The notes below the pieces were generated by a model, which was not told where the DNA came from, did no database searches, and worked only from the letters and a program-made list of their open reading frames with translations. 64,000 nucleotides of DNA, from NCBI GenBank assembly GCA_002343185.1, contig DDRT01000001.1:27018-91017 (forward strand). Reading direction: 5' to 3'. How positions within the stretch are numbered: the first letter of the stretch is position 1; each line of letters starts with the position of its first letter. Shown in pieces: positions 28 through 64,000 of the stretch. Both the position numbers and the translations under genes were made by a program. The stretch is from Deltaproteobacteria bacterium UBA2409. Lineage in GTDB: Bacteria; Bdellovibrionota_C; UBA2361; DDRT01.

Positions 28-125
28 AACTAACATCAACCCGCATCACAATGAAGGACTGCTACGGCTGCTTTCTTCCGAACCTGACCGGGTTTACAGA
101 TTCACTCGCACGGGTTGACAGCAAG
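28..125 (-). ncRNA. ffs: Small (4.5S-type) signal recognition particle RNA
   Basis: The minus strand of 59-92 reads CCCGGTCAGGTTCGGAAGAAAGCAGCCGTAGCAG. This matches the conserved domain IV core of E. coli 4.5S RNA (CCAGGUCAGGUCCGGAAGGAAGCAGCCAAGGCAG). The closing helix pairs 36-43 (tcaacccg) with 111-118 (cgggttga). Ends are approximate (+/-10 nt). Confidence 0.85.
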
Positions 126-9102: not shown

Positions 9103-9756
9103 TTATTTCTTCTTGACACCTGAGGCCTTCTTACCTTTCTTTCCCTTAACCTCTTCCTCTTTTGGACGCATCTCATCCTCTGTAAGCTGTCGATACGCTG
9201 TTATAGTACAGCTAACATCTACTCCTACCGATCCTCCCTCCGAGTAGCCTCTGGGGTTTATGAATGAAACATCTGCAACGCTAATAATCCTTGATAGTCT
9301 GCTTATCTCATCAAAGAAACTAACTACCTGATGATATGTGCCTCTCATCTCGATTCGAACAGGGATCTCAGCATAATGAGAAGAAACTTTGTCTGGTTCC
9401 GGTGCAAATCTTCTGACGTTTAGCCCTATGTCTTTGGCTAGTGACTGAACTGAGCTTAGAAGATTAGGAACTTCTCTTCCTTGTGGGAGCTGTCTTTCTG
9501 CAAGTTCTTGAACAGATCTATAGGCAGCAACCTCCTTTTTATATCTCTCAAGATTAGCAGCGATCCTCCTCTCTTGATTCAACTGTGTTTGCAGAGAATC
9601 TATCTCTTTAAGAAGACCATCCTCTTCCTCTCTTAGTGGGCTTAGAAATAGATAATTACAACCAAACCATGTAACTAAAATTATGGCTATAACCCCACCA
9701 ATCAGCTGCTTTTGAGAAAGTCCTTCAATGAACTCAAGAAGCTTCTTCACTGACAC
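9103..9756 (-). CDS. pilO: Type IV pilus assembly protein PilO
   Basis: N-terminal TM, a coiled coil, and the PilO core (EIPVRIEMRGTYHQVVSFFDEISRLSRII). GTG start. Lys-rich tail. Confidence 0.75.
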   Translation of the reverse strand: MSVKKLLEFIEGLSQKQLIGGVIAIILVTWFGCNYLFLSPLREEEDGLLKEIDSLQTQLNQERRIAANLERYKKEVAAYRSVQELAERQLPQGREVPNLLSSVQSLAKDIGLNVRRFAPEPDKVSSHYAEIPVRIEMRGTYHQVVSFFDEISRLSRIISVADVSFINPRGYSEGGSVGVDVSCTITAYRQLTEDEMRPKEEEVKGKKGKKASGVKKK

Positions 9757-10567
9757 CTCCTGAAAGCTTCATAAAATCGTAGTTAAATTCAATTGTAAAA
9801 AGCCTTGATTCAGTTCCTTGGGAAAGTTCCCAGAAGTAGATTCCTTCTGGTATCTGAATGAAACGTCCCCACCCAACTACCCGACCTTCTCCACCTGAAG
9901 TTGGTCCAGCAGCACGATTAGTCTCGCTTTGAACTGATTTTGGAGGGGGTTTTGGATAAATTTTTAGCCCTCTCTCATCTGCTTCATCACGAACAAGTCT
10001 TTCAACATCTTTAACTCTATCTGCAGGTATTATGTAAAATGAGTAATCACTATCAGCTGTGTTGTAGGTGATTATTTTATTTAGATAAACAACAACGGTT
10101 TCTCTTAGGGCTACGTTTTTTAGGTAAGGGTAAGCCTCAAGCCCACTTTGAAACTGCGATACAGCGAAGTTATTGAGTGCCAGGCCATTCACTGTAACCT
10201 TTCCATCTTCTTCTACGTATGAAGTAATCCAGGCTCTTTCTGGTAAAGCCCTGTTAAGATCTTCAAAAAGCCTTACTGGTCCAATCTGTTGAAGCTTAAC
10301 TTTAGCTATACTCTGCGCTATCTCCTCAAGTTCAGATTTTCTAGTATCAAGCTCTGCAACCTCGCTTGTTTTTTCCTTAATTAGAGCTAAGTCTGTTCTA
10401 AGTCCTGTAATCTGTCGCTTAGATTCTGATATCTGTCCTGATAGAATCAAATACTGAATTCCAAGAAGTAAAACTACACCTAAAAAAACAGCTCCTCCAA
10501 TTGCACTTGTAGCTCTTCTGATTGCTGTCGAATCATCCGGTTCTGAGAGAAGGTTTATCTTAATCAT
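9734..10567 (-). CDS. pilN: PilN-like type IV pilus assembly protein, unusually long
   Basis: Starts MIKINLL (PilN hallmark), then a TM and a coiled coil. The ATG at 10567 is preceded by GGAGA, whereas the ORF-track start at 10582 is TTG. There are about 90 extra C-terminal residues. Confidence 0.7.
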   Translation of the reverse strand: MIKINLLSEPDDSTAIRRATSAIGGAVFLGVVLLLGIQYLILSGQISESKRQITGLRTDLALIKEKTSEVAELDTRKSELEEIAQSIAKVKLQQIGPVRLFEDLNRALPERAWITSYVEEDGKVTVNGLALNNFAVSQFQSGLEAYPYLKNVALRETVVVYLNKIITYNTADSDYSFYIIPADRVKDVERLVRDEADERGLKIYPKPPPKSVQSETNRAAGPTSGGEGRVVGWGRFIQIPEGIYFWELSQGTESRLFTIEFNYDFMKLSGGVSEEAS

Positions 10568-11618
10568 ATACCTTGTCTCCAAAACTACGGAGTGCTAGCC
10601 CAACACTCACTGAATAAGCTGCCGGAGCTTTTAAGCTCGCCTTTTCCTTGTATGTAACATTTCTGAATGGATCTATAATGAAAGTCTCAACCTCTGACCT
10701 CTCCGAGAAAGCCTCTAAAAGGCCTCTAGTATGTGCTGCTCCACCGGATAATACGACGCAATCTACCCCTGTATCAGCAGCACTACAGAAGAATGTAAGC
10801 TGCCTATGAAGCTCTGAGGCAACGTGCTCAACGTTCTTTGCTAGAATATCCAAAGCAGCTTCTCTTAGTCTTTCGTCTCCAACCATCTCCATCTGCTTTA
10901 ATTTTTCAGCCTCTTCTTCGCTCATTCCAAAAACATCAGTTAAAGATTGAGTGATATAATCTCCCCCAATATTTACATCACCGCAAAAAAGCGATTGTCC
11001 TTTATTGATTAAATTTACTGCTGAGTATTTAGAGCCTATCTCAACTAACGCAACTGTTTTTTCAAAATACTCAGGATAGTTCGCCTCAAACGCATTTTGA
11101 ACTGCAAAATATTCAACATCGCAGATACCTGGCTCGATACCAGTCACTGTGACTGTTTCAACAAACCTATCGATTACATCATTTTTGACTGCTACAACAA
11201 GAATTTCTAGCTGATTCTTTCCAGCCTCACCAAGTACATGAAAATCAAGTCTCACTGCATTAATTGAATGAGGTATTAAACTTGCTGCTTCAAACTGAAT
11301 AGTATCTGCAAGCTCTTTAATGTTCGTTTGATTAACCTTGTGCCTTTTTGTAAAAACACTTGGCGCAGGAACTGCAAATACTCCTCTATAAACTTTTGGA
11401 TCAAAGTCAGCTCCAGCAGATCTAAGAGCATCTGCTACTACTGACGGCTGTGAGATGGTGTTGTTCTGGACTACATCTTTTGGCAGTGCGCAGGTTCCAA
11501 GCTGTACTACGTTGTAACCACCGCTTCTCTCTTTAAGTTCGATGAACTTTGCAGAGCTACCTCCAATATCAATTCCAACAAACTTAAATTTCTGTTTAAA
11601 AAGATCAATAAAACTCAT
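10560..11618 (-). CDS. pilM: Type IV pilus assembly ATPase-like protein PilM
   Basis: Actin-like fold motifs (VGIDIGGSSAKFIEL, VVLSGGAA). It is followed by pilN and pilO. Confidence 0.9.
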   Translation of the reverse strand: MSFIDLFKQKFKFVGIDIGGSSAKFIELKERSGGYNVVQLGTCALPKDVVQNNTISQPSVVADALRSAGADFDPKVYRGVFAVPAPSVFTKRHKVNQTNIKELADTIQFEAASLIPHSINAVRLDFHVLGEAGKNQLEILVVAVKNDVIDRFVETVTVTGIEPGICDVEYFAVQNAFEANYPEYFEKTVALVEIGSKYSAVNLINKGQSLFCGDVNIGGDYITQSLTDVFGMSEEEAEKLKQMEMVGDERLREAALDILAKNVEHVASELHRQLTFFCSAADTGVDCVVLSGGAAHTRGLLEAFSERSEVETFIIDPFRNVTYKEKASLKAPAAYSVSVGLALRSFGDKVYD

Positions 11619-27013: not shown

Positions 27014-27075
27014 AGTTCATTCTTTGCCAAATTATTCAGATTACGGCAAGGGTTTCAAGGAATTAACTGTATTAG

Positions 27076-28128
27076 TCAGCTAATCTTTCTAATTTTACTC
27101 ACTGCCCAAAATAAAGCAGTGAACAAAACTACTACAATCGCTCCCATCCCTTGATGGGTAACTCCTAAAACAATATTTACCCCAGTAAGTAGAGTTGCTA
27201 CCCCTAGGGAAAATTGCACTATGATTGAGGCAGAAAATAGTAGAATTAAAACCTTGATAAATCTTGGTGAGTCGGTTTTTAGGTAATACCAGCAAAAAGC
27301 AACTAATAGCAGTAACCATCCGAATATACGGTGAATAAACTGAACAGCAATTGGATTGGAAGTTAAATTTTTAAGGATCCCATCAAATATAAAAAGATCT
27401 GGTGGAATTAAAAAACCACTCATGAGGGGAAAAGAATTGTACATATATCCAGCTTTTAGTCCTGCTGTAAACGCGCCCCATAAAAATTGAAAAATTAAAA
27501 GTATGAGGGTGAAAATTCCGAAGTAAAAAAGATTATAAGCTTTTCTTAGTGAGATCTCGCTTTTTAGAGCTTCAATCTTATCTCTAAAAAGTAGCTCAAA
27601 AATATGCCACACAATTATCGATAGTAAAATTAGAGCTAAGCTTAAATGAGCTGCAAGTCTTAGGTGACTAACTCTTGGAATATCCACAAGACCGCTTTTC
27701 ACCATATACCAGCCCATAAAGCCCTGAACTCCGCAAAGAAGAACAAGTAAAGAGTATTTTAGTATCTCAGCTCTTGTGAGCCATCTAGAAAATACTAACA
27801 AAGGGAGTAAGAGTGCTATTCCAACAAGTCGACCCATTATTCTATGTAAATATTCCCAGAAGAAAATAAATTTAAAATAATCGAGACTCATCCCCTTATT
27901 CTGAAGTTTATACTGAGGACTCTCTCGGTACTGATCAAAAAGCCCTAACCAATCTTCTTCTGAAAGTGGTGGCAATATTCCTGCAACAGGCTGCCATTCT
28001 ACAATTGAAAGCCCTGAGCCAGTTAGGCGTGTTATTCCCCCAACTAGTACTGTCATAAATACTAAAAATGCGCAGACAGAGAGCCAAAGAACCTTTAATT
28101 TTTTCTCATAGTCTTGATTAATCAACAT
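27076..28128 (-). CDS. ctaA: Heme A synthase (COX15/CtaA family)
   Basis: 350 aa and about 8 TM, with conserved His-containing helices (YLHRIMGR, AAHLSLA, FIHRIFG, THQGMGA). Confidence 0.75.
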   Translation of the reverse strand: MLINQDYEKKLKVLWLSVCAFLVFMTVLVGGITRLTGSGLSIVEWQPVAGILPPLSEEDWLGLFDQYRESPQYKLQNKGMSLDYFKFIFFWEYLHRIMGRLVGIALLLPLLVFSRWLTRAEILKYSLLVLLCGVQGFMGWYMVKSGLVDIPRVSHLRLAAHLSLALILLSIIVWHIFELLFRDKIEALKSEISLRKAYNLFYFGIFTLILLIFQFLWGAFTAGLKAGYMYNSFPLMSGFLIPPDLFIFDGILKNLTSNPIAVQFIHRIFGWLLLLVAFCWYYLKTDSPRFIKVLILLFSASIIVQFSLGVATLLTGVNIVLGVTHQGMGAIVVVLFTALFWAVSKIRKIS

Positions 28129-29835: not shown

Positions 29836-30258
29836 TTAACCAATTACTTCCAGATATTTTTTTAGCTTTGAGTTGTTAGAGATTCTCTTTGCTGCCACCA
29901 AATCAGCTGTAAGCCATTTTGCGTTTAGAATCAGGGCAGTTTGTAAATAAATTGAGTCGAAAACTGAGAGGTTATTTTTACAGGCAATACTACAGGAGTC
30001 TACCAAATGTTTTCCCTGAATAGGAACGGTTGGTATTCCTAAGCTGTAGATAGATTCGATCGCCTTTTTCGTAAATATCTCGTCATTGGAGGACTTTCTA
30101 GAAATTACAGCGGCAGCTTCTGGATAGAAAAGCTCAGGAACCGCAAATCTAGATGGGTCTAATGTAAGCAGGTTTAGTTGCTCAATGCTTTCCTTATGTA
30201 AATTTTCGTTTGTAAAAAACCATTTAATTGCAACAGATGCATCTAATACGTATGTCAT
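29836..30258 (-). CDS. vapC: PIN-domain toxin (VapC-like)
   Basis: 140 aa. N-terminal YVLDASVAIKW with the acidic Asp, later FDSIYLQTA. Typical PIN length. Confidence 0.75.
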   Translation of the reverse strand: MTYVLDASVAIKWFFTNENLHKESIEQLNLLTLDPSRFAVPELFYPEAAAVISRKSSNDEIFTKKAIESIYSLGIPTVPIQGKHLVDSCSIACKNNLSVFDSIYLQTALILNAKWLTADLVAAKRISNNSKLKKYLEVIG

Positions 30259-30374
30259 TACCTAAGCCGAAGTTCAGTCAGAATTTCATCCAACGAAGCA
30301 GTGATTTCTACGGCGTGTTTTCGCTTCGCCTGCCACCATTTGGTGTCACTCTCCTTTCTGGAAATATCTAATTC
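30258..30374 (-). pseudogene. Short open frame abutting vapC (possible decayed antitoxin remnant or conserved leader)
   Basis: 38 codons (ELDISRKESDTKWWQAKRKHAVEITASLDEILTELRLR) end in TAATG with the vapC start. There is no canonical start codon after an in-frame TAA. It is related to the sequence upstream of the Hpt gene at 40751-40856. Confidence 0.3.
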
Positions 30375-30494
30375 TTAATTTTCCATATATTTTTAAACAT
30401 TTAGAAAATTATAGGAGAGTTTCAAAATAGGGTGGTTTTAATATTCGCTAATAGAGAGAACCAATAGTTGAGAGGCGATTGGTAAGTTACTTAA

Positions 30495-30742
30495 TTGAGT
30501 AGGGTTTCTTAACCACGTATACTCAGCCCTTGGAGAAGTTAAGTTATGGAAAGACAAGTCACTACTACAGAACAGCCTAATCTTGAAGGTGCCAAAATCG
30601 GGAAAGACGGCACATTAAATGTAGCGAGCCTCTCACCAAGTCAGCAGCAAACTCTAAGAAGAATTGGTGCCATGGCACTTATCGGCGCTGGTCTCTTAGC
30701 TCCTAAAGATGCTGAAGCGGTTACGCTTATTCAGCTAAATGA
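30495..30742 (+). repeat. 248-bp block identical to 31606-31853 (leader plus codons 1-65 of the tandem PEP-CTERM genes)
   Basis: Base-by-base comparison of the two stretches shows no mismatch. The offset is 1111 bp. Confidence 0.9.
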
Positions 30743-31397
30743 AACAAATCCTAAGGATAATTTGGCAGGAGCCGCTATTTTTTGGAATGGAGGCTCAACA
30801 TCAAACATGCTAGTCGACCGTTTTAGCATTAGCGAAGGAACTACTCTTACTGAGGCATCAGTTCTAGCAAATCTAAGAACAAGTGGTGGTACTTATCGAG
30901 ATGTAAATGATCCCGTTTGGCAAACTTTTAGAATAAATTTATATAAAGATGTTGGTGGTGTTCCTGAAAATATCTTCACACCTTCATTCTCTATAGCGGT
31001 TAACTCAAGCAAAATTCTGTCGATCTCTCAAACTAATATAAGAGATGATATGGGACAATTTTTCTACAAAATGCGATTTGAGCTAAATCAAGATCTAACA
31101 ACCCCTGGAACTTATTATATGGGTATAGCATTCGATGCAACGCAACATAGCGGATCTGCGCTCCCGTCTTTGCGAATTAATGCAAATGATCTAGTTCCAT
31201 TAAATGATCCGAATATGGGCATGTTTGCTAATAGCAGCAATCAAACATGGCGAGGTCTTCAATACCCAGGCACTAATGATTATTTCGATCCTAACTATGG
31301 ACTTGAAGCTGTTCCGGAACCTGGAACTTTTATGGTAGCTGTTGTTGCTTTAGGTGCTTATGCAGCTCAGAGGGTTAAAAAAGCTTTTAGCCGTTAA
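30546..31397 (+). CDS. PEP-CTERM sorting-signal protein, paralog 1
   Basis: GGAG Shine-Dalgarno 10 nt upstream. A long N-terminal extension precedes the hydrophobic segment RRIGAMALIGAGLLAP. The C-terminus is VPEPGTFMVAVVALGAYAAQRVKK (PEP motif, TM, basic tail). Confidence 0.8.
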   Translation: MERQVTTTEQPNLEGAKIGKDGTLNVASLSPSQQQTLRRIGAMALIGAGLLAPKDAEAVTLIQLNETNPKDNLAGAAIFWNGGSTSNMLVDRFSISEGTTLTEASVLANLRTSGGTYRDVNDPVWQTFRINLYKDVGGVPENIFTPSFSIAVNSSKILSISQTNIRDDMGQFFYKMRFELNQDLTTPGTYYMGIAFDATQHSGSALPSLRINANDLVPLNDPNMGMFANSSNQTWRGLQYPGTNDYFDPNYGLEAVPEPGTFMVAVVALGAYAAQRVKKAFSR

Positions 31398-31591
31398 TAC
31401 CATACAGATGTATCAAATCCGCCAGAGCGGTCAATACAGTCTGGTTTGCCATCTACGTTGTTCTCAACCCATTCAAATGCAGATGGATCCCCATCCGACA
31501 CTATAGCCCCAGTAACCACGCAAAATGACGTGGTAAAGTTCAAATCTTCTAAATTATTAGGATACAAACAGCACCTAGACCCTAATAACTC
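31394..31591 (-). pseudogene. 5'-truncated Flp-pilin paralog (C-terminal module only)
   Basis: The open frame ...NFTTSFCVVTGAIVSDGDPSAFEWVENNVDGKPDCIDRSGGFDTSVWY* aligns with residues about 40-87 of the pilin at 32517-32780. It lacks the leader, the G/A cleavage site and the hydrophobic helix, and has no ATG. Confidence 0.6.
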
Positions 31592-31605
31592 TTATCAGTA
31601 TTTAG

Positions 31606-31853
31606 TTGAGTAGGGTTTCTTAACCACGTATACTCAGCCCTTGGAGAAGTTAAGTTATGGAAAGACAAGTCACTACTACAGAACAGCCTAATCTTGAAGG
31701 TGCCAAAATCGGGAAAGACGGCACATTAAATGTAGCGAGCCTCTCACCAAGTCAGCAGCAAACTCTAAGAAGAATTGGTGCCATGGCACTTATCGGCGCT
31801 GGTCTCTTAGCTCCTAAAGATGCTGAAGCGGTTACGCTTATTCAGCTAAATGA
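31606..31853 (+). repeat. Second copy of the 248-bp identical block
   Basis: See 30495-30742. Confidence 0.9.
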
Positions 31854-32520
31854 TAATGGCTTAAATGGACTAAGAGGTGTTGCATCTTTTTGGAACGGAG
31901 CATCAGGCAGTGCGATGGCAGTTGAGAAGTTTCAGATCGACTCACCTACAGTTCTTACTGAAGCTAGTGCTTTAGCAAATTTAAGAGTTGGACTAAGCAA
32001 CTACGGAAAACCAATCACTGACCCTCAGTGGCAAACATTTAGAGTTTTAATTTATAAAGATGTAAATGGTGTTCCAGAAAATTGGCTTCAACCATCATAC
32101 CAGATTGCAGTTAACTCAAGCATGCTGCAGTTAACTCCTACTAGCATTGTAGACAATAACAATCAGATCTTTTACAAAGCTCAGATGTCGATTAACCAAT
32201 TAATCGATCAACCAGGAACTTATCATTTAGGGATAGCTTTTGATGCAACACAGCATTCAGGATCTGCTCTTCCTGGTTTCAACACTAATATAGAAAGTTT
32301 GAATCCATTAGGACACCCTGATAATAGCCTATTCACGTCGAATGGCACTTGGAGTCAACTTCAATATCCTTCAACTGATCAGTATGTAAACATTAACTAT
32401 GGCCTAAAAGGTCAACCAGTTCCTGAGCCAGGAACCATAACTGTTGCTTTAGTTGGTCTTGGTGCTATCGCTGCAAGGAAAATCAAAAGTTCAATTGCTA
32501 GAGGCTTAGGTAGGGATTAA
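31657..32520 (+). CDS. PEP-CTERM sorting-signal protein, paralog 2
   Basis: The first 65 residues are identical to paralog 1. The C-terminus is PVPEPGTITVALVGLGAIAARKIK. Confidence 0.8.
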   Translation: MERQVTTTEQPNLEGAKIGKDGTLNVASLSPSQQQTLRRIGAMALIGAGLLAPKDAEAVTLIQLNDNGLNGLRGVASFWNGASGSAMAVEKFQIDSPTVLTEASALANLRVGLSNYGKPITDPQWQTFRVLIYKDVNGVPENWLQPSYQIAVNSSMLQLTPTSIVDNNNQIFYKAQMSINQLIDQPGTYHLGIAFDATQHSGSALPGFNTNIESLNPLGHPDNSLFTSNGTWSQLQYPSTDQYVNINYGLKGQPVPEPGTITVALVGLGAIAARKIKSSIARGLGRD

Positions 32521-32780
32521 TACCAAACTGAACCGCCAAAACCCCCAACTTCTTGACAATCTGGTCTTCCACTACCATCGTCCGGAAGCCAGTTATAAGC
32601 GTTAGCATTCCCATCCGACACTATAGCCCCAGTAACCACGCAAAATGGTCTGGTAACGTTTACACCCAAAACGCGCACCCCTCCAATAGCCAAAATAGCA
32701 ATCAGGCTTACTAAAAGTGAATACTCAACCAAAGAGGCACCGCGCTCTTTCATAGCAGTTCTATTAACGACATAATCCAT
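32517..32780 (-). CDS. Flp/Fap-type (type IVb) pilin with an extended Cys-containing C-terminus
   Basis: Flp signature KERG/ASLVEYSLLVSLIAILAIGG (G-A cleavage site, EY, hydrophobic helix). About 35 extra residues contain FC...PDC and end in SVWY. Confidence 0.7.
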   Translation of the reverse strand: MDYVVNRTAMKERGASLVEYSLLVSLIAILAIGGVRVLGVNVTRPFCVVTGAIVSDGNANAYNWLPDDGSGRPDCQEVGGFGGSVWY

Positions 32781-32896
32781 ACAGTTCTTTAACTATACCC
32801 CCTACGCGAATCTCTTATTTTAGAGATTTGCTTCAAGGAAAGTGAAACTATATTAACTTACTTTGCCTTAAGCTAAGGCTATCGTAAGATCCTGAA

Positions 32897-33631
32897 ATGA
32901 TTAATAAGCGACTCCTTTTGATGGCTGTAGTGAGTGCTGCATTTGTTGTTCTAATTGGAATATTTGCTTTCGGACTTGTAAGTCGAAAAAACAAAGCTCA
33001 TCAATTTGAAACAGTAACTATTAATTCTATTATTTCGAATCTTTCTTTAACAGAAACTGGATCTCTTAAGGTCAGTGAAGAGCTTTTTGGGGTAGCTAGA
33101 GGAAAAAATATAAAAGGTATTATCAGATTTTTTCCTGGGACATTACCTGTAAAATCAGGTATCGTCGCACCTAAAATTTTAAACCTAACAGGTCTTAATA
33201 CAAACACCTTTGAGCCTTTGTTTTTAAAGGAAGAGCCCTCAAAAGATAAAAACTCCCTTAAAATTGGTTTGGCAGAAGACAAACCCCTTAGTGGCAATTT
33301 TTCCTTTAGACTTGATTATGAGCTAGACGGATTAGTATTGAATACAGCTAGTGGAAGATATCTTTTCTTTAAACAAATATGGAATCATTCAACATCTATT
33401 GGAAAAGCAAGTGTTACTTTAAATCTGAATCACTTTGATGTGTCAGCTTTAAAAGCATGGATAGATCTAAATGAATATATCCAAGTTAGAGCAGGTGAGG
33501 CGCAAGCATATCTTCCTAAGTCAGATGAATCCTCTGTGCTAGTTAATATAGAAGGTAATGAAGCAAAGGTAATAAGCACAAGGAGACTGGCTCCTTTTGA
33601 ATCTATCTCTATAATGGTTCCTCTTTTATGA
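32897..33631 (+). CDS. Single-pass membrane protein resembling the DUF2207 N-terminal domain, paralog 1
   Basis: N-terminal TM, then I-x-S-x3-L-x3-TGSLKVSEE...G-x2-R pattern and LDYELDG. The family assignment is tentative. Confidence 0.5.
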   Translation: MINKRLLLMAVVSAAFVVLIGIFAFGLVSRKNKAHQFETVTINSIISNLSLTETGSLKVSEELFGVARGKNIKGIIRFFPGTLPVKSGIVAPKILNLTGLNTNTFEPLFLKEEPSKDKNSLKIGLAEDKPLSGNFSFRLDYELDGLVLNTASGRYLFFKQIWNHSTSIGKASVTLNLNHFDVSALKAWIDLNEYIQVRAGEAQAYLPKSDESSVLVNIEGNEAKVISTRRLAPFESISIMVPLL

Positions 33632-35127
33632 TCTTACAGATAATACCTCCCAATAGTGGGTTTGATATAAATTACAGGGCTATCTGGCCATCAAAAAAGG
33701 TGAATTTTCAATTTCTAAATGTAAATGAAAACTCAGAGGCCTCTTTTGAGTTAAGCGAAATTGCATCTATTCTCTACCTTTTTAATCCACTAAATCTCGA
33801 ATACCTCTCGATATTAAAAAGACGAAAATTGCTTGGCCTTCCTACAATAATCGAATACACAGATAACTTTCTTGAGCTGCCTCTTTGGAACCCTGCAAGA
33901 GCAACTTATGGAACAAGAAAAGGTAAGAGCATTTTTAGAAAATTTATTAAAGAAGCTACGGTAGTTACTACTACATCTGTAGGGTTTAAAGAGTATCTCG
34001 ATAAGGAATTTACACTTGATGCAGTGCTTCTTAAAAATCAACTACCTGAAAACCCTCCTCCGATTAAAGAAAAATCTAAAGAGATCTGTTGGGGAGGATC
34101 TACCGGACATATGGGAGATTTAAGAGATTTTTTACCTATTCTGAATGAACTAAACAATCGCTTTAACTTTGAAATAATGGGCGATCCTTCATTTAGTCTA
34201 ATTGCTCCGGAACTCTCTTTTACACCAGGTAAACCATATCAAGAATATTTAAACTGGTTAAGTGATTTTAAAATTGGCGTTATCCCTTTGACCTTAAATC
34301 CTTACAATAGATCAAGAAGCGACATTAAAGCAGTAGAGATGTTAAGTAGAGGAGTGGTTCCAATATGTCCCGAAGGGCCAGTGTATCAGGATATACCAAC
34401 TCCTAAATATAAAAATCCTCAAGATATTGTACAAATAGCGACTAAATTGCTTAAGGACTCTGAAACATTAAATAAGTACAGTGAACTTGGGCTAAGTTAT
34501 GTTTTACAGAATCGAGTAGATGAGAAAGAAAGAGAAAAGTTTTTTAGTTCTTTTAACTGTGAGTTTAAGGATGTTGAGCCATATAATGATACTCCACTTC
34601 CATTAGGAAAGCTTTCCCGCTTACTCGAAGCAATCTCTGAGGCACCCGAAAGTAGGGTTAGTTTAATTGAGGAATATCTATCACTTTACCCTGATTCCCT
34701 TGAGGGAAGGCTTATGTATCTAAAAGCTCTAGAAGAAGATGAAGTCCGATTTACTGAAGAATTTGAGAATATTGATCGTGAATTTCCGGATGAGCTGAGA
34801 CATTTATCTTTTAAGAACAAACTAGAACTTTTAGAGCGCCTTGAAAAGCTAAGTAAAATTGAGCGAGCTGAAGTTTTATATCAATTTAAAGATCTGTTTC
34901 TTGGGGTAACTGATATAGATATCCTAAAAAGAGCTGTTAAGGTATTCGGATCAATTCATGGGGCAAGGCTAATCTTTGAACTTGCAAACAATCTTCAAAA
35001 GCAAGGTGAGAGTGAAGAAGCAAAGGTACTTTATAAACAGCTTTATTCAATTGCACTTAGTTTTTATCCTATTCTTCCAGTAGGTTTCCCAAATTTTCAG
35101 CTTATCACCTGTCTTGCTAAAGACTAA
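33628..35127 (+). CDS. Putative GT-B-like glycosyltransferase with a C-terminal helical (TPR-like) region
   Basis: 499 aa. ATGA overlap with the upstream gene. ICWGGSTGHMGDL and IKAVEMLSRGVVPI resemble GT-B nucleotide-sugar binding segments. The C-terminal 150 aa are helical repeats. Low certainty. Confidence 0.4.
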   Translation: MILQIIPPNSGFDINYRAIWPSKKVNFQFLNVNENSEASFELSEIASILYLFNPLNLEYLSILKRRKLLGLPTIIEYTDNFLELPLWNPARATYGTRKGKSIFRKFIKEATVVTTTSVGFKEYLDKEFTLDAVLLKNQLPENPPPIKEKSKEICWGGSTGHMGDLRDFLPILNELNNRFNFEIMGDPSFSLIAPELSFTPGKPYQEYLNWLSDFKIGVIPLTLNPYNRSRSDIKAVEMLSRGVVPICPEGPVYQDIPTPKYKNPQDIVQIATKLLKDSETLNKYSELGLSYVLQNRVDEKEREKFFSSFNCEFKDVEPYNDTPLPLGKLSRLLEAISEAPESRVSLIEEYLSLYPDSLEGRLMYLKALEEDEVRFTEEFENIDREFPDELRHLSFKNKLELLERLEKLSKIERAEVLYQFKDLFLGVTDIDILKRAVKVFGSIHGARLIFELANNLQKQGESEEAKVLYKQLYSIALSFYPILPVGFPNFQLITCLAKD

Positions 35128-35199: not shown

Positions 35200-36096
35200 A
35201 TGAATATTCAACAAGTTATGGATTCTAAAGCTGGGCTACCAAAGGTAGGGGAGCTTAGTTTTGGTGATCTTCCCTCTAAATTTCAATCTGGGATGGAGAG
35301 AATAGCAGGAGAAGTCAAAGAAAAACTAGGTGTATTAATCGATCCTTCAAATTGGAGCTATAGAACTACAAGAAATAGATTAATTGCGGTTGGAGCTATT
35401 ACTACAATCAGCGCAGCCGCTTCTTCACAAATTTTTAACTATGCGGATCCCAATCTTGTCTCGGGCAATTCTGATGCTTGGGCAAGCTCATTTTCCGGGA
35501 ATAGCCAAAATAAAAATTCTGCTATAAATCAATATACACTTGATGGACCTTCTCGGATTGGAGATAGTGCTTTTCTTGTAATAAGAACCAACACCCTAAC
35601 GAGTGGAGACCCGTTGGATCCAAATTTCGCTCCAAACTTCCAGTTTGGTATTTGGCAGAAAACAAATGGTAGCTTCCCACTTTCTCAGAACCCAACCCAT
35701 CTTATAAGCTTAGACCTAGGGCAGTTGACTAGTGTTAATACAGGTAAAACTATTGCTGGTTTTCAGGTCTGGAAGTTATCTGTTCCGGAATCTGCACTCC
35801 AATTTAACCCAGAACTAAATGGAACCATTGGATTCGGGCTCAGAGGCTTTTTCAATGCGGCAGGCGCTCACTCTCCGTATGCCGTTACTGTTGGCGCGGA
35901 TTTGCAAGATCAGATCTCTTGGGGATCTAGGCTAAGCTGGGATGGTCAATTTAGACAGGACATGGGGCATCATCCAACTCAGACTGCATTTGGCCAAGAC
36001 GTGCGCTTTAATCCAGTTCCCGAACCTGGAACTATCGTAGGGGCTGGCGCTGCAATGGCTGCTTACTTATTCCGCCGCCGAAGAAAAGAAGATTAG
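35200..36096 (+). CDS. PEP-CTERM sorting-signal protein, paralog 3 (distant)
   Basis: Long N-terminal extension, then NRLIAVGAITTISAAAS. The C-terminus is NPVPEPGTIVGAGAAMAAYLFRRRRK. Confidence 0.75.
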   Translation: MNIQQVMDSKAGLPKVGELSFGDLPSKFQSGMERIAGEVKEKLGVLIDPSNWSYRTTRNRLIAVGAITTISAAASSQIFNYADPNLVSGNSDAWASSFSGNSQNKNSAINQYTLDGPSRIGDSAFLVIRTNTLTSGDPLDPNFAPNFQFGIWQKTNGSFPLSQNPTHLISLDLGQLTSVNTGKTIAGFQVWKLSVPESALQFNPELNGTIGFGLRGFFNAAGAHSPYAVTVGADLQDQISWGSRLSWDGQFRQDMGHHPTQTAFGQDVRFNPVPEPGTIVGAGAAMAAYLFRRRRKED

Positions 36097-37643: not shown

Positions 37644-38537
37644 TTACTCGACCGGTACTAGCCCACCTTTACCATCACAAGGAACTATGAACTCTTTATC
37701 TCCGATTCTCATTGTTCCTGCTTGGCAATCAACAGAGCCAGATTTTTTAGGCGCTGCCCCAGGATCCATAATTTTTCCTTGAGTAACTGAATCAACTTCT
37801 GGTGCTTTATCATCACTTGCATCACGCATAATAAGCCCTAGTCTACCAAGCTGTTTAGCTGTCTGGATCGACAGTGCTTCTTCAGGTGTTACTTCAAGTG
37901 TAATTGTACTTTTTGAAGCAACTCTTATAGCAGCGCCTGCCTGTGGGCGCCCCTGTGTCATATCACCACCAAAAGATAATACTCTTGCATTTGGAACAAG
38001 CACTCTTGTTGCAAGCTGCTTGTCATTCATATAAGTCAAAGTCACATCAACTCTTGTTCCTGGTCTTGCGTACCCTTCAATTGAAGCAGTCTCATCAACT
38101 TCAATTGTAATTGCTCTCATTCCAGGTGTTAAGGGAAGGGAAACCGTAACAGGTTCATTAGATATTGAATTTGTAGTTATAGGAGTGCCTGGCTCAAGAG
38201 CTTCTCTAGCATATTTATCTTTTAGTTGAGCAAGATCTCTTACTGCACCTTCAGGGATCTGATTTCTTGGCCAAACAACTTCCTTAAATCTAACATCCGT
38301 TAACTTTGCTCCAACTCGTACGGGTCTTTCAGGAGCATAAAGTGTTACTGTTGCAGACTCTGGCTGAAGAAGCTTTTGGGTTTCTTCTTTTGGTTTTTCA
38401 TCTTTAGATTTAATTGAAAAAACAGCCCCAACCACCACCAACAAGGATAGAAAAGCACCACCAGCTGCGATTAAAAGAAACTTCTCTCGATCAGAATTTC
38501 CGGAGAACCCACCCTTTTTGTTGAAGTAATCGCTCAT
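37644..38537 (-). CDS. cpaB: Flp pilus assembly protein CpaB/RcpC family
   Basis: N-terminal TM, a SAF-like segment (VRVGAKLTDVRFKEVVWPRNQIPEGAV), and an RcpC-like beta domain (GTRVDVTLTY, ARVLSFGG). Confidence 0.75.
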   Translation of the reverse strand: MSDYFNKKGGFSGNSDREKFLLIAAGGAFLSLLVVVGAVFSIKSKDEKPKEETQKLLQPESATVTLYAPERPVRVGAKLTDVRFKEVVWPRNQIPEGAVRDLAQLKDKYAREALEPGTPITTNSISNEPVTVSLPLTPGMRAITIEVDETASIEGYARPGTRVDVTLTYMNDKQLATRVLVPNARVLSFGGDMTQGRPQAGAAIRVASKSTITLEVTPEEALSIQTAKQLGRLGLIMRDASDDKAPEVDSVTQGKIMDPGAAPKKSGSVDCQAGTMRIGDKEFIVPCDGKGGLVPVE

Positions 38538-62403: not shown

Positions 62404-64000
62404 CTAAATGAACCTATCTCCATTCCCTAAAAGTCTAAGCGCTAACTGAGGCTGTTGATTTGCCTGGGCTAAAACCGCTGCTCCTGCTTGTTGTAATATA
62501 TTAAGTCTAATTAGTTCTGCAGAATCTACAGCTATATCGGTATCAGTAATTCTTGATGCTGCTGCTAGGAAGTTGTCTCTAGCAGTAAGAGTGGTAGAGA
62601 TTGCTGTATTAATTCTGGCCATGAAGGCACCAATTGATCCTCTCTCTAAAGATACTCTAGTAAGTTGCTCATTTAAAAATGTTAGAGCTTCAAGAGCAGA
62701 CTCTTGAGTAGTTATATCAAATAGTTTTGTGTTAAGAGTTTGAGTTGCATCTCCGGTAGTAATTTTTATATTTCCACTTCCAAAACCCCCATCGTTTGAT
62801 GCGATATCAATAATTCCGTCACCATTAAAATCACCAACTGCTAGAGTTGAAGTGCTTCCAGGATTAGTTGAAGTTACTCCTGCTGCAAATGTTCCTGTTC
62901 CGCTTCCTAAGTATGAGATAATTCCAGAAGCTGATGTCTGAGCTAAATCTAGGATACCATCACCATTAAGATCTGCTATTCTTACGCTCGTTCCTGGATA
63001 TCCACCTCCTATCACTCCAGCAAAAGATTGACCTGTACTAAATGTACCATTTCCATTTCCAAGGAAAACTTGATAGGCATTGCCAGCATTATTAAGTTGA
63101 ACAAAATCTCCAATTCCGTCTCCATTAAAATCGCCGACTCCAATTTGACCTCCAGCAACAGATCCAGCAAAAGTTTGAGTGGTTGATTGGGCTGATCCGT
63201 TCTCGCCAATTCTAATTACAGATATTCCAGCTGAGGCAGAAACAAATACTGCTGAGTAAGTATCAGATAATGTATCGTGCATTAATCTTACTGTTGAGCT
63301 ACCCGATCCCGCGCCAATGCTAAAGGTAGCGCTAACTGAGAATGTTCCATTTGAATTTCCTAGGTATATCCTTCCTGCTCCAACTCCTGCTTGAACAATA
63401 TCATCTCTTCCGTCACCATTTATATCTGCAACATCAAATCCGTTGTTTCCAAACGTTGCATCTGTGTAGGTCATTCCTAAGGTAAATGTTCCATCGCCAT
63501 CACCTGTAAAGACAGAGATTCGACCACCTGCCGATGTTACAGCAAAGTCTTCTCTACCATCTCCATTAAAATCTCCTACTCTAAGGTACCCATTTGAAGC
63601 AGCAGTATTTGCAATCTCTAAGCCTGCTGCAAAAGTGCCATCACTATTTCCTAAGGCTACTCTTATTTGTCCACTACCATCGTTTGAGCTAATCAGATCT
63701 AAAATTCCATCTCCATTAAAATCAGCTGTTTCAAGTTGGGTTACATATCCTAACCCTGTAGCAGCAGTTGAATATGTAGAGAATGTTCCATCTCCTACAT
63801 CTCTTGCGCCCTCTTCCCCAATAAAAGCAGATAGTATCCCATTAGTGCCGTATCCTACCTGAAGAGATAGACCACTTGTCCTCATCTGATCGCTAAAAAT
63901 GTTAATCCCATTAAATGTACTCGAAGAAAGTATGCGGTTATATTCTGCTGATAGTGCATTTATTTCGGTATTTAATGCGAATCTTTGCTGCGTTGAATAA
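62404..64000 (-). CDS. Flagellin with an FG-GAP repeat (beta-propeller-like) central domain; 5' end lies beyond the window
   Basis: C-terminal D1/D0 helices (LERGSIGAFMARINTAI...DIAVDSAELIRLNILQQAGAAVLAQANQQPQLALRLL). The frame stays open upstream of the listed Met to position 64000 and encodes ...EINALSAEYNRILSSSTFNGINIF (flagellin ND1). There are six DxNGDG motifs in between. Confidence 0.85.
   Translation of the reverse strand, partial: YSTQQRFALNTEINALSAEYNRILSSSTFNGINIFSDQMRTSGLSLQVGYGTNGILSAFIGEEGARDVGDGTFSTYSTAATGLGYVTQLETADFNGDGILDLISSNDGSGQIRVALGNSDGTFAAGLEIANTAASNGYLRVGDFNGDGREDFAVTSAGGRISVFTGDGDGTFTLGMTYTDATFGNNGFDVADINGDGRDDIVQAGVGAGRIYLGNSNGTFSVSATFSIGAGSGSSTVRLMHDTLSDTYSAVFVSASAGISVIRIGENGSAQSTTQTFAGSVAGGQIGVGDFNGDGIGDFVQLNNAGNAYQVFLGNGNGTFSTGQSFAGVIGGGYPGTSVRIADLNGDGILDLAQTSASGIISYLGSGTGTFAAGVTSTNPGSTSTLAVGDFNGDGIIDIASNDGGFGSGNIKITTGDATQTLNTKLFDITTQESALEALTFLNEQLTRVSLERGSIGAFMARINTAISTTLTARDNFLAAASRITDTDIAVDSAELIRLNILQQAGAAVLAQANQQPQLALRLLGNGDRFI

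Follow-up and report, generated by a model that had tools for sequence, protein, structure and literature searches.

How can two neighbouring genes be identical to the last base in their first part and saturated with synonymous changes in the remainder? This question is raised by two tandem genes for PEP-CTERM proteins, W1 and W2, in Deltaproteobacteria bacterium UBA2409 (assembly GCA_002343185.1, contig DDRT01000001.1, forward-strand positions 27,018 to 91,017), of which a stretch of 64,000 nucleotides (nt) was analysed; this whole stretch is referred to as the window, positions are counted from its first letter, and its lineage is called W. An initial annotation had noted a perfectly identical head of 248 bp in both genes, followed by strongly diverged bodies, and had explained this either by repeated gene conversion of a constant head or by variable bodies being swapped behind that head. 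Comparison with related sequences makes it likely that W1 and W2 belong to old tandem modules which have been homogenised in patches by ectopic gene conversion, and that modules of this kind have also been exchanged between lineages.

Identical head blocks within diverged tandem units

Positions 30495-30742 and 31606-31853 match at 248/248 nt, and neither end extends by even one base; once two mismatches are allowed, the repeat spans 30488-30742 and 31599-31853. Counted from the ATG codons at 30546 and 31657, the block consists of 51 nt of leader, codons 1-65 and 2 further nt, as the initial annotation had described. The 65 codons specify a hydrophilic extension of 37 amino acids (aa), a signal peptide ending in AEA and the residues VTLIQLN; the 3' end of the block is seven codons past the predicted cleavage site of the signal peptide, and its 5' end falls exactly on the first base of a promoter-like site, TTGAGT-N17-TATACT. 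Outside the block, the unit-to-unit alignment contains many indels and has an identity of 0.40-0.78 per 40-column window, in agreement with the collapse of identity reported earlier. In a permutation test in which the columns of this alignment were shuffled 20,000 times, no shuffle produced an identical run longer than 54, whereas the observed run is 248 (P<5e-5).

In the codon alignment of W1 and W2 the heads are identical at 195/195 coding nt (65 codons; proportion of synonymous differences (pS) 0, synonymous divergence (dS) 0), whereas the bodies have 57.5% nt identity, with a pS of 0.66, a saturated dS of about 1.6 and a nonsynonymous divergence (dN) of 0.48. To the left of the head block, the upstream region reaches only 35-60% identity in the unit-to-unit alignment, and the block is an internal tract with homologous but diverged sequence on both flanks.

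A second identical stretch is formed by positions 31490-31527 and 32610-32647 (38/38 nt), which have no further match in the window even when three mismatches are allowed; after removal of the head, a run of at least 38 was seen in 0.015% of the column shuffles (P=1.5e-4). The initial annotation had placed this island in an flp-like sequence downstream of each copy; the match is exact, but the flp sequence is on the opposite strand, and a full gene for this Flp-type pilin follows copy 2 only, with a remnant following copy 1. On a metagenomic contig of 703 nt (L011, ENA ERZ794930), the 3' part of a W1-type gene precedes an intact flp gene; this 3' part is 80% identical to W1 in aa and 76% in nt (dS about 1.4). 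The patch in the remnant has 7/38 differences to this type-1 ortholog, 1/38 to a further lineage, S, and none to the intact flp gene of module 2. Because the paralogs are identical while the L011 ortholog differs, the patch is best read as a copy from the intact gene into the remnant.

The locus in independent assemblies

Searches with the exact W2 protein identified the locus in four assemblies from other samples, and it is 100% identical to the window wherever they overlap: JGI 3300013771 (L007, a contig of 560 kb), JGI 3300006417 (L008), ENA ERZ761604 (L009, covering window positions 30980-32932) and ENA ERZ936845 (L010, a bioreactor-sludge metagenome, covering 31352-32835). The two short contigs, L009 and L010, each connect the copy-1 tail to the copy-2 body in one continuous sequence that includes head 2. 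The contig-naming styles differ among the four assemblies, and the assemblers are probably different. As far as assemblies can show, the two-copy locus with its identical heads is real.

Concerted evolution in two lineages

Lineage D (L001, JGI 3300045922) also contains two tandem copies, with an flp gene after each. The heads of D1 and D2 are 99.5% identical and their bodies 70% (dS about 1.07). The near-identical tracts in L001 comprise promoter and head (193-447), a mid-body segment (493-612), and the N-terminal half of flp with its upstream region (1196-1369, equal to 2601-2774), and they alternate with stretches of 50-70% identity; therefore the D module has constant ends and a variable centre, the latter consisting of the mature PEP-CTERM domain and the C-terminal part of Flp.

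Within the tracts, W1 and W2 are 100% and D1 and D2 99.5% identical, against 62% between W and D and 91.8% between W and S. Such high identity inside genomes together with divergence between them characterises concerted evolution by gene conversion, and it is seen here in two lineages. The conversion of a constant head suggested by the initial annotation is thus supported by the dS of 0 in the heads against saturated bodies, by the diverged flanks, by the pattern in lineage D and by the paralog-like 38-bp patch. These alignments show that patches of one module were copied onto the other, and that the same occurred independently in the second lineage.

Comparison between genomes also shows how far the head is constrained. 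The head of the window differs from that of lineage S at 16/195 positions (pS 0.149), and its two copies differ from the D heads with a dS of 1.2-1.5 and a dN/dS of about 0.25. From the 16 differences to S and this ratio it follows that the nt sequence of the head is free to change between genomes, and because the ratio of about 0.25 between lineages signifies purifying selection, the N-terminal extension is considered to be translated. The hexamers and the spacing of TTGAGT-N17-TATACT are kept in S (L002) and D (L001), and on the strength of this conservation across lineages the site is probably a promoter.

Exchange of modules between lineages

Lineage S is represented by five identical Logan assemblies (L002-L006), which have a single W2-type gene followed by flp. 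Two conserved genes downstream of the locus, encoding proteins of 244 and 499 aa, served as yardstick of lineage divergence. For the 499-aa gene, S and D are 89.6% identical in nt (dS 0.37), whereas W has 66% identity with either (pS 0.76-0.77). The 244-aa gene follows the same lineage pattern, and overall the flanking genes are 66-68% identical between W and S (pS 0.70-0.76) and 88-90% between S and D. The module itself behaves differently, as its identity between window and S is 80-100% by segment, against about 66% for the flanks, while the identity of the S module to D1 and D2 is only about 66%. The similarity to the W2 module extends from promoter and 5' untranslated region (UTR; 51/51) through the head (179/195), codons 66-90 (60/75), codons 91-230 (414/420) and codons 231-287 (161/174) to flp (99/117 and 132/143) and the flp upstream region (40/42). 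The possibility that the divergent S codons 75-88 are a leftover D2-like allele was rejected, as identity there is 0.69-0.71 between S and D2 against 0.76-0.78 between S and W2.

In S, the W-like segment spans from about 9680 to 11018; its left end follows a D-like motif, and at its right end the sequence turns D-like, at a 13-nt stretch (AATCTCTTATTTT) which is common to W, S and D. With an assumed k of 31, a shared match of 13 nt is too short for a chimeric assembly join, and since the S module is also not identical to that of W, S is taken to be a real recombinant. With D-like flanks and a W2-like module, it follows that the module has passed between the W and S lineages recently, after the split of S and D. 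Upstream of its single gene, S joins distal sequence resembling the region before module 1 (64/82 identical) to proximal sequence resembling that before module 2, followed by a type-2 body; tentatively, a deletion between the repeat units of a W-like tandem would leave this structure.

Two further features of lineage S were recorded in this comparison. The motif ACACGCGGTCTNTGAGACG is located 100-350 nt upstream of PEP-CTERM genes in S, D and L019, a contig carrying a distant relative of the locus (L002 8010, 9450 and about 9650; L001 1493; L019 13), and in S additionally upstream of AAA_14 genes. It has no match in the window even with three mismatches; a regulatory site is conceivable, as is a genome-specific repeat. 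Moreover, the intergenic region that separates flp from the 240-aa gene is longer in L002 by about 200 nt (about 11040-11240); this extra sequence is absent from W and D and contains a perfect hairpin, GGTCTGGTT-AAAA-CCAGACC.

Proposed mechanism and its weak points

We propose that a convergent gene pair was the original form of each of the two modules of about 1.1 kb, with a PEP-CTERM gene in forward and an Flp-type pilin gene in reverse orientation. The modules would be old and strongly diverged, with saturated synonymous sites, and short patches would have been copied between them: one of 248 bp containing a sigma-70-type promoter, the 5' UTR, the N-terminal extension, the signal peptide and the first seven mature residues, and a second consisting of a 38-bp piece of flp. 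The process is presumably homologous recombination of the RecA type. Conversion may recur at the ends of the modules because only the ends stay similar enough to pair, and the ends could be homogenised harmlessly, or even usefully, because they encode the parts that have to fit the host, i.e. promoter, Sec signal, prepilin leader and assembly helix. The centre, with the mature PEP-CTERM domain and the C-terminal part of Flp, may be too diverged for pairing, or may be selected to stay different. The homologous ends would also allow whole modules to move between lineages.

The likely direction of conversion is from module 2 to module 1. This is the simplest direction because W2 and S have a similar pS in head and body (0.149 vs 0.163), and it is the same as for the flp patch. 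The initial annotation had regarded heads diverging at the same rate as bodies in related genomes as a sign against conversion; the W2 and S orthologs do diverge in this way, yet this is exactly what conversion within a genome predicts. An overwriting of the W2 head after the transfer was also considered, on the ground that the head is more diverged from S than the core; it was dropped, as this excess is significant for all sites (P=7e-5) but not for synonymous sites (P=0.13).

Several points count against the proposal. Copy number and population variants were judged through independent assemblies only, each of which is a consensus. Two-copy lineages are limited to two, with two paralogs per genome, and recurrence therefore means two cases. 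In the consensus scan for promoter-like sites, the region was no richer than its shuffles. With regard to the direction of head conversion, the synonymous divergence between W2 and S is 0.149 in the head against 0.066 in the core, a difference that is not significant (Fisher P=0.13).

Alternative explanations

The strongest competing explanation is a one-off by-product of horizontal acquisition, in which a module was acquired, the integrating crossover fell within the head, and both copies thereby received the resident head at once. In its favour, movement of modules between lineages is observed, the type-1 and type-2 bodies each occur in other lineages (L011 and S, respectively), and the single S module with its composite upstream region would suit such a history. 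However, diverged homologous sequence is present to the left of the block in both units, making this an internal tract and not an integration end, a separate 38-bp patch is found 0.75 kb away, and L001 has several separate tracts, one of them mid-body. We regard a single acquisition as improbable; it is still homologous recombination, and differs from recurrent conversion in the number of events only. A further hint against it comes from L001, which may share the tandem by descent, with heads alike within each genome and different between genomes, if the D copies are orthologous to W1 and W2.

Programmed surface variation, in which specialised recombination would place alternative bodies behind one constant expression head and the locus would switch at high frequency, resembles the layout seen here, and the products are surface or pilus proteins. 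Furthermore, the contig of a fourth lineage (L017) breaks off in the variable part of flp, which could reflect heterogeneity. On the other hand, both copies are complete genes with their own promoter-like site and start codon, no further copies of head, bodies or flp that might serve as silent cassettes are present elsewhere in the 64-kb window, and the locus is not flanked by inverted repeats. Among the scanned window open reading frames (ORFs) of at least 120 aa, none was found to encode a recombinase, integrase, transposase or reverse transcriptase, and no variant was seen in the four assemblies of the window lineage and the five of S, a weak test as these are consensus assemblies. Programmed variation is hence very unlikely. 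The swapping of bodies proposed in the initial annotation does not hold as a switch of this kind, but on an evolutionary scale it has a counterpart in the exchange of whole modules between lineages. A diversity-generating retroelement was rejected, as the scanned ORFs include no reverse transcriptase and the bodies differ by indels and substitutions along their whole length.

An assembly artefact, or purifying selection at the nt level (for instance on an RNA element in the leader) which keeps the heads identical without copying, is likewise hardly credible: although the 248-nt repeat is near short-read length, a hairpin at the border of head and body is conserved in L001 (-11.8 kcal/mol, z about -3), and promoter and UTR are fully identical between W and S, two of the four concordant assemblies read through head 2 from unique flanks, the differences of the head to S and D include synonymous sites and so the head is not frozen, and no Rfam family matches at the locus. 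Gene conversion between old modules remains the preferred explanation.

Organisation of the locus and neighbouring genes

The features of the locus are listed in Table 1. The repeat unit of about 1.1 kb comprises upstream region, head, body and the 3' part of flp. The approximately 55 nt ahead of head 2 represent what is left, in diverged form, of the intergenic region before head 1, and positions 31539-31557 and 31588-31605 align to the upstream region of lineage S. The G+C content of the sequence is 39%, and the scanned ORFs of the window encode housekeeping and pilus functions.

Table 1. Positions of the parts of the two-module locus and of the genes following it.
Feature	Position	Strand	Basis or remark
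Upstream intergenic region of module 1 (up-1)	30367..30494	+	diverged from the short counterpart before module 2
Promoter-like site, copy 1	30495..30523	+	TTGAGT-N17-TATACT, consensus scan
Identical head, copy 1	30495..30742	+	promoter, 5' UTR with GGAG, codons 1-65
W1, PEP-CTERM protein gene, type-1 body	30546..31397	+	ORF, 283 aa
flp remnant of module 1	about 31397..31543	-	C-terminal 49 codons, tblastn
38-nt conversion patch (putative) in flp remnant	31490..31527	-	codes FCVVTGAIVSDG; exact match to 32610-32647
Unit junction and short diverged upstream remnant (up-2)	31539..31605	+	flp homology stops at about 31543
Identical head, copy 2	31606..31853	+	promoter-like site 31606-31634
W2, PEP-CTERM protein gene, type-2 body	31657..32520	+	ORF, 287 aa; body 94.9% nt identical to the S gene
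Intact Flp-type pilin gene of module 2	32517..32780	-	convergent on W2
38-nt conversion patch (putative) in intact flp	32610..32647	-	likely donor; exact match to 31490-31527
flp upstream region	32781..32842	-	right-hand end of the high-identity segment common to S; 40/42 identical
Two conserved downstream genes	32897..35127	+	244 aa, DUF2207-like; 499 aa, no family

The pair of downstream genes is syntenic in L001, L002 and L017, and distantly so in L019, where a homolog of the 244-aa protein (25% identity, E 2.5e-12) is followed by the start of a 499-like protein. L017 (1-222) is the sole contig found for the fourth lineage, with a 499-aa protein that is 60% identical; that it ends inside the variable C-terminal part of flp fits an assembly stop at a heterogeneous or repeated locus.

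The hairpin mentioned above, GCUGAAGCG-GUUA-CGCUU-AUU-CAGC, is located at 30711-30735 and 31822-31846, where it coincides with the codons of the signal-peptide cleavage site just within the 3' edge of the identical block. In lineage D it is kept (L001 400-424) with a G-U pair in place of an A-U pair, and the 30 nt around it have about 87% identity between W and D, against 50-60% for the remaining head. The sole Rfam match of the window is a bacterial small signal recognition particle RNA (RF00169, 58.9 bits) at 29-122 (-).

Directly upstream of the locus is a gene for a PIN-domain toxin (29836-30258, -), without an adjoining ORF of antitoxin size; in lineage S the PIN gene has a PhdYeFM antitoxin as its partner. 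The gene for the heme A synthase CtaA (27076-28128, -) sits beside ABC-transporter genes in the window. CtaA was rejected as syntenic anchor, since its relatives at 90% identity or more have a different gene context: those on other contigs from the same samples (L015, L016) are flanked by cytochrome oxidase, anaerobic ribonucleotide reductase and NnrS genes. Elsewhere in the window, the protein encoded at 62404-63885 (-) is unusual in having both FG-GAP repeats and the C-terminal helical domain of flagellin (PF00700, E 2.7e-16).

The PEP-CTERM proteins and the Flp-type pilin

W2 matches the PEP-CTERM family PF07589 with 23.9 bits, above the cut-off of 20.7, whereas W1 remains under it with 16.0 bits; its motif (VPEPGT, a transmembrane segment and RVKK) is nevertheless visible as VPEPGTFMVAVVALGAYAAQRVKK. 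A third PEP-CTERM gene is present at 35200-36096 (PF07589, 23.2 bits; TIGR02595, 23.4 bits). By inspection only, a signal-peptide-like segment, RRIGAMALIGAGLLAPKDAEA/V, follows the unusual hydrophilic extension of 37 aa, with a predicted cut at AEA/VTLIQLN (slashes denote the cut). All members of the group have a hydrophilic extension of about 37-60 aa before the hydrophobic segment (30546-30656 and 31657-31767 in the window), and a long N-terminal extension is likewise carried by the third gene (35200-35400) and by two distant relatives, P0006 and P0007. No exosortase gene (EpsH/Xrt) was found among the ORFs scanned in the 64-kb window.

An AlphaFold2 model of W1, based on an alignment of four sequences, had a mean predicted local distance difference test score (pLDDT) of only 38.9, and a PDB profile search gave no meaningful match. 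The family is tiny. Word-indexed protein searches (three family clusters) returned only the proteins of the window, S and D and one new flank lineage, and an exhaustive profile search of 1.84 billion proteins, in which the family has five representatives, added two fragments and the two distant relatives. Profile scans of genome and metagenome contigs with the PEP-CTERM or the 499-aa protein alignment gave no match.

The intact flp product scores below the cut-off of 32.2 for PF04964 (23.6 bits, E 4.4e-5), but its translation contains an Flp prepilin leader, MKERG/ASLVEYSLLVSLIAILAIGG (G/ASLVEY motif), followed by a hydrophobic helix, and these features are conserved in S, D, L011, L017 and L019. 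Of the Tad genes, CpaB/RcpC is in the window (37644-38537; TIGR03177, 147.5 bits), the others being outside it. In a tblastn search with Flp, the remnant in module 1 has 55% identity over residues 40-87 and has lost leader and hydrophobic helix; the motif DGKPDCIDRS is common to the remnant and the intact L011 gene. In lineage D, the first flp gene (L001 about 1096-1336, -) has an in-frame stop after about 54 codons (...GNENTYV*), which cuts off the variable C-terminal part, in contrast to the first flp gene of the window, which misses its N-terminal part instead.

The stop codons of the PEP-CTERM and flp genes overlap in the palindrome TTAA, at 31394-31397 and at 32517-32520, and the same overlap of 4 nt is annotated in L002, L011 and L012. 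Of the distant relatives, both P0006 (E 2.5e-6) and P0007 (E 3.9e-5) are followed by a convergent Flp-like gene of 77-81 aa, and since even distant relatives keep such a gene, the PEP-CTERM/Flp pair seems to be an old and conserved arrangement.

A functional link between the partners can be argued from linkage, because the convergent pair is kept even in the distant L012 and L019. As a rather doubtful possibility, the PEP-CTERM protein and the C-terminal part of Flp may form a co-inherited surface-specificity cassette with the constant ends as recombination handles. The two partners could then interact physically, for instance as a pilus-associated adhesin or aggregation factor; the handles would let cassettes be duplicated, deleted and swapped between species, and conversion within the genome would re-fit incoming cassettes to the export machinery of the host.

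Comparison with known systems

The babA and babB genes of Helicobacter pylori (Hop family) are surface-protein paralogs with near-identical 5' ends, including the signal sequence, and a diverged middle, between which conversion takes place. The present locus resembles them in being composed of surface-protein paralogs with a constant 5' end and a diverged middle, and in the copying of segments between genes. The bab loci, however, are unlinked and encode beta-barrel outer-membrane adhesins with conserved 3' ends also, whereas here the genes are in tandem, the anchor is of the PEP-CTERM type, the tract includes the promoter, and the second constant end is in the convergent flp gene. In Pseudomonas aeruginosa, pilA and its accessory gene form a variable cassette between conserved flanks, which is exchanged horizontally and is discordant with the genome phylogeny. 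The exchange of a pilin with a linked partner gene as a cassette is common to both, but the P. aeruginosa alleles are type IVa pilins with glycosylation or accessory partners, without tandem duplication or homogenisation of heads within the genome, and not an Flp-type pilin with a PEP-CTERM partner.

Programmed variation with a constant expressed N-terminal part and variable downstream parts is known from pilE/pilS of Neisseria, vsa of Mycoplasma pulmonis and the R64 shufflon. While a constant N-terminal and a variable downstream part of a surface or pilus protein is also seen here, those systems depend on promoterless silent cassettes, on a site-specific recombinase acting at inverted sites, or on both, and they give rise to heterogeneous populations; none of these features was found here. 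Similarly, tufA and tufB are paralogs held identical by RecA-dependent conversion while their orthologs diverge. Identical paralogs within and diverged orthologs between genomes are shared with this case, but in tuf the whole gene is homogenised under strong purifying selection, whereas here this concerns short patches only and the remainder is saturated.

A literature search gave no paper linking PEP-CTERM genes with gene conversion or with Flp pilins, and none for the sample accessions. The process, i.e. gene conversion and cassette exchange at surface-protein loci, is known; the example is new, in a very small family, and it is distinctive in that the tract takes in the promoter and the second constant end is in a different, convergent gene.

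Significance

While its practical value is modest, the locus provides a clean natural example, which can be checked on the sequence alone, of recombination sorting a surface locus into constant ends (promoter, Sec signal and prepilin leader) and a variable exposed centre. It also links two surface systems that are usually kept apart, the PEP-CTERM/exosortase cargo and the Tad/Flp pili, in the form of a PEP-CTERM/flp pair which appears to have been duplicated, converted in patches and transferred as a unit. The tiny family, obtained from bioreactor sludge and other metagenomes, suggests that an uncultured lineage possesses a module for adhesion or aggregation which is so far uncharacterised.

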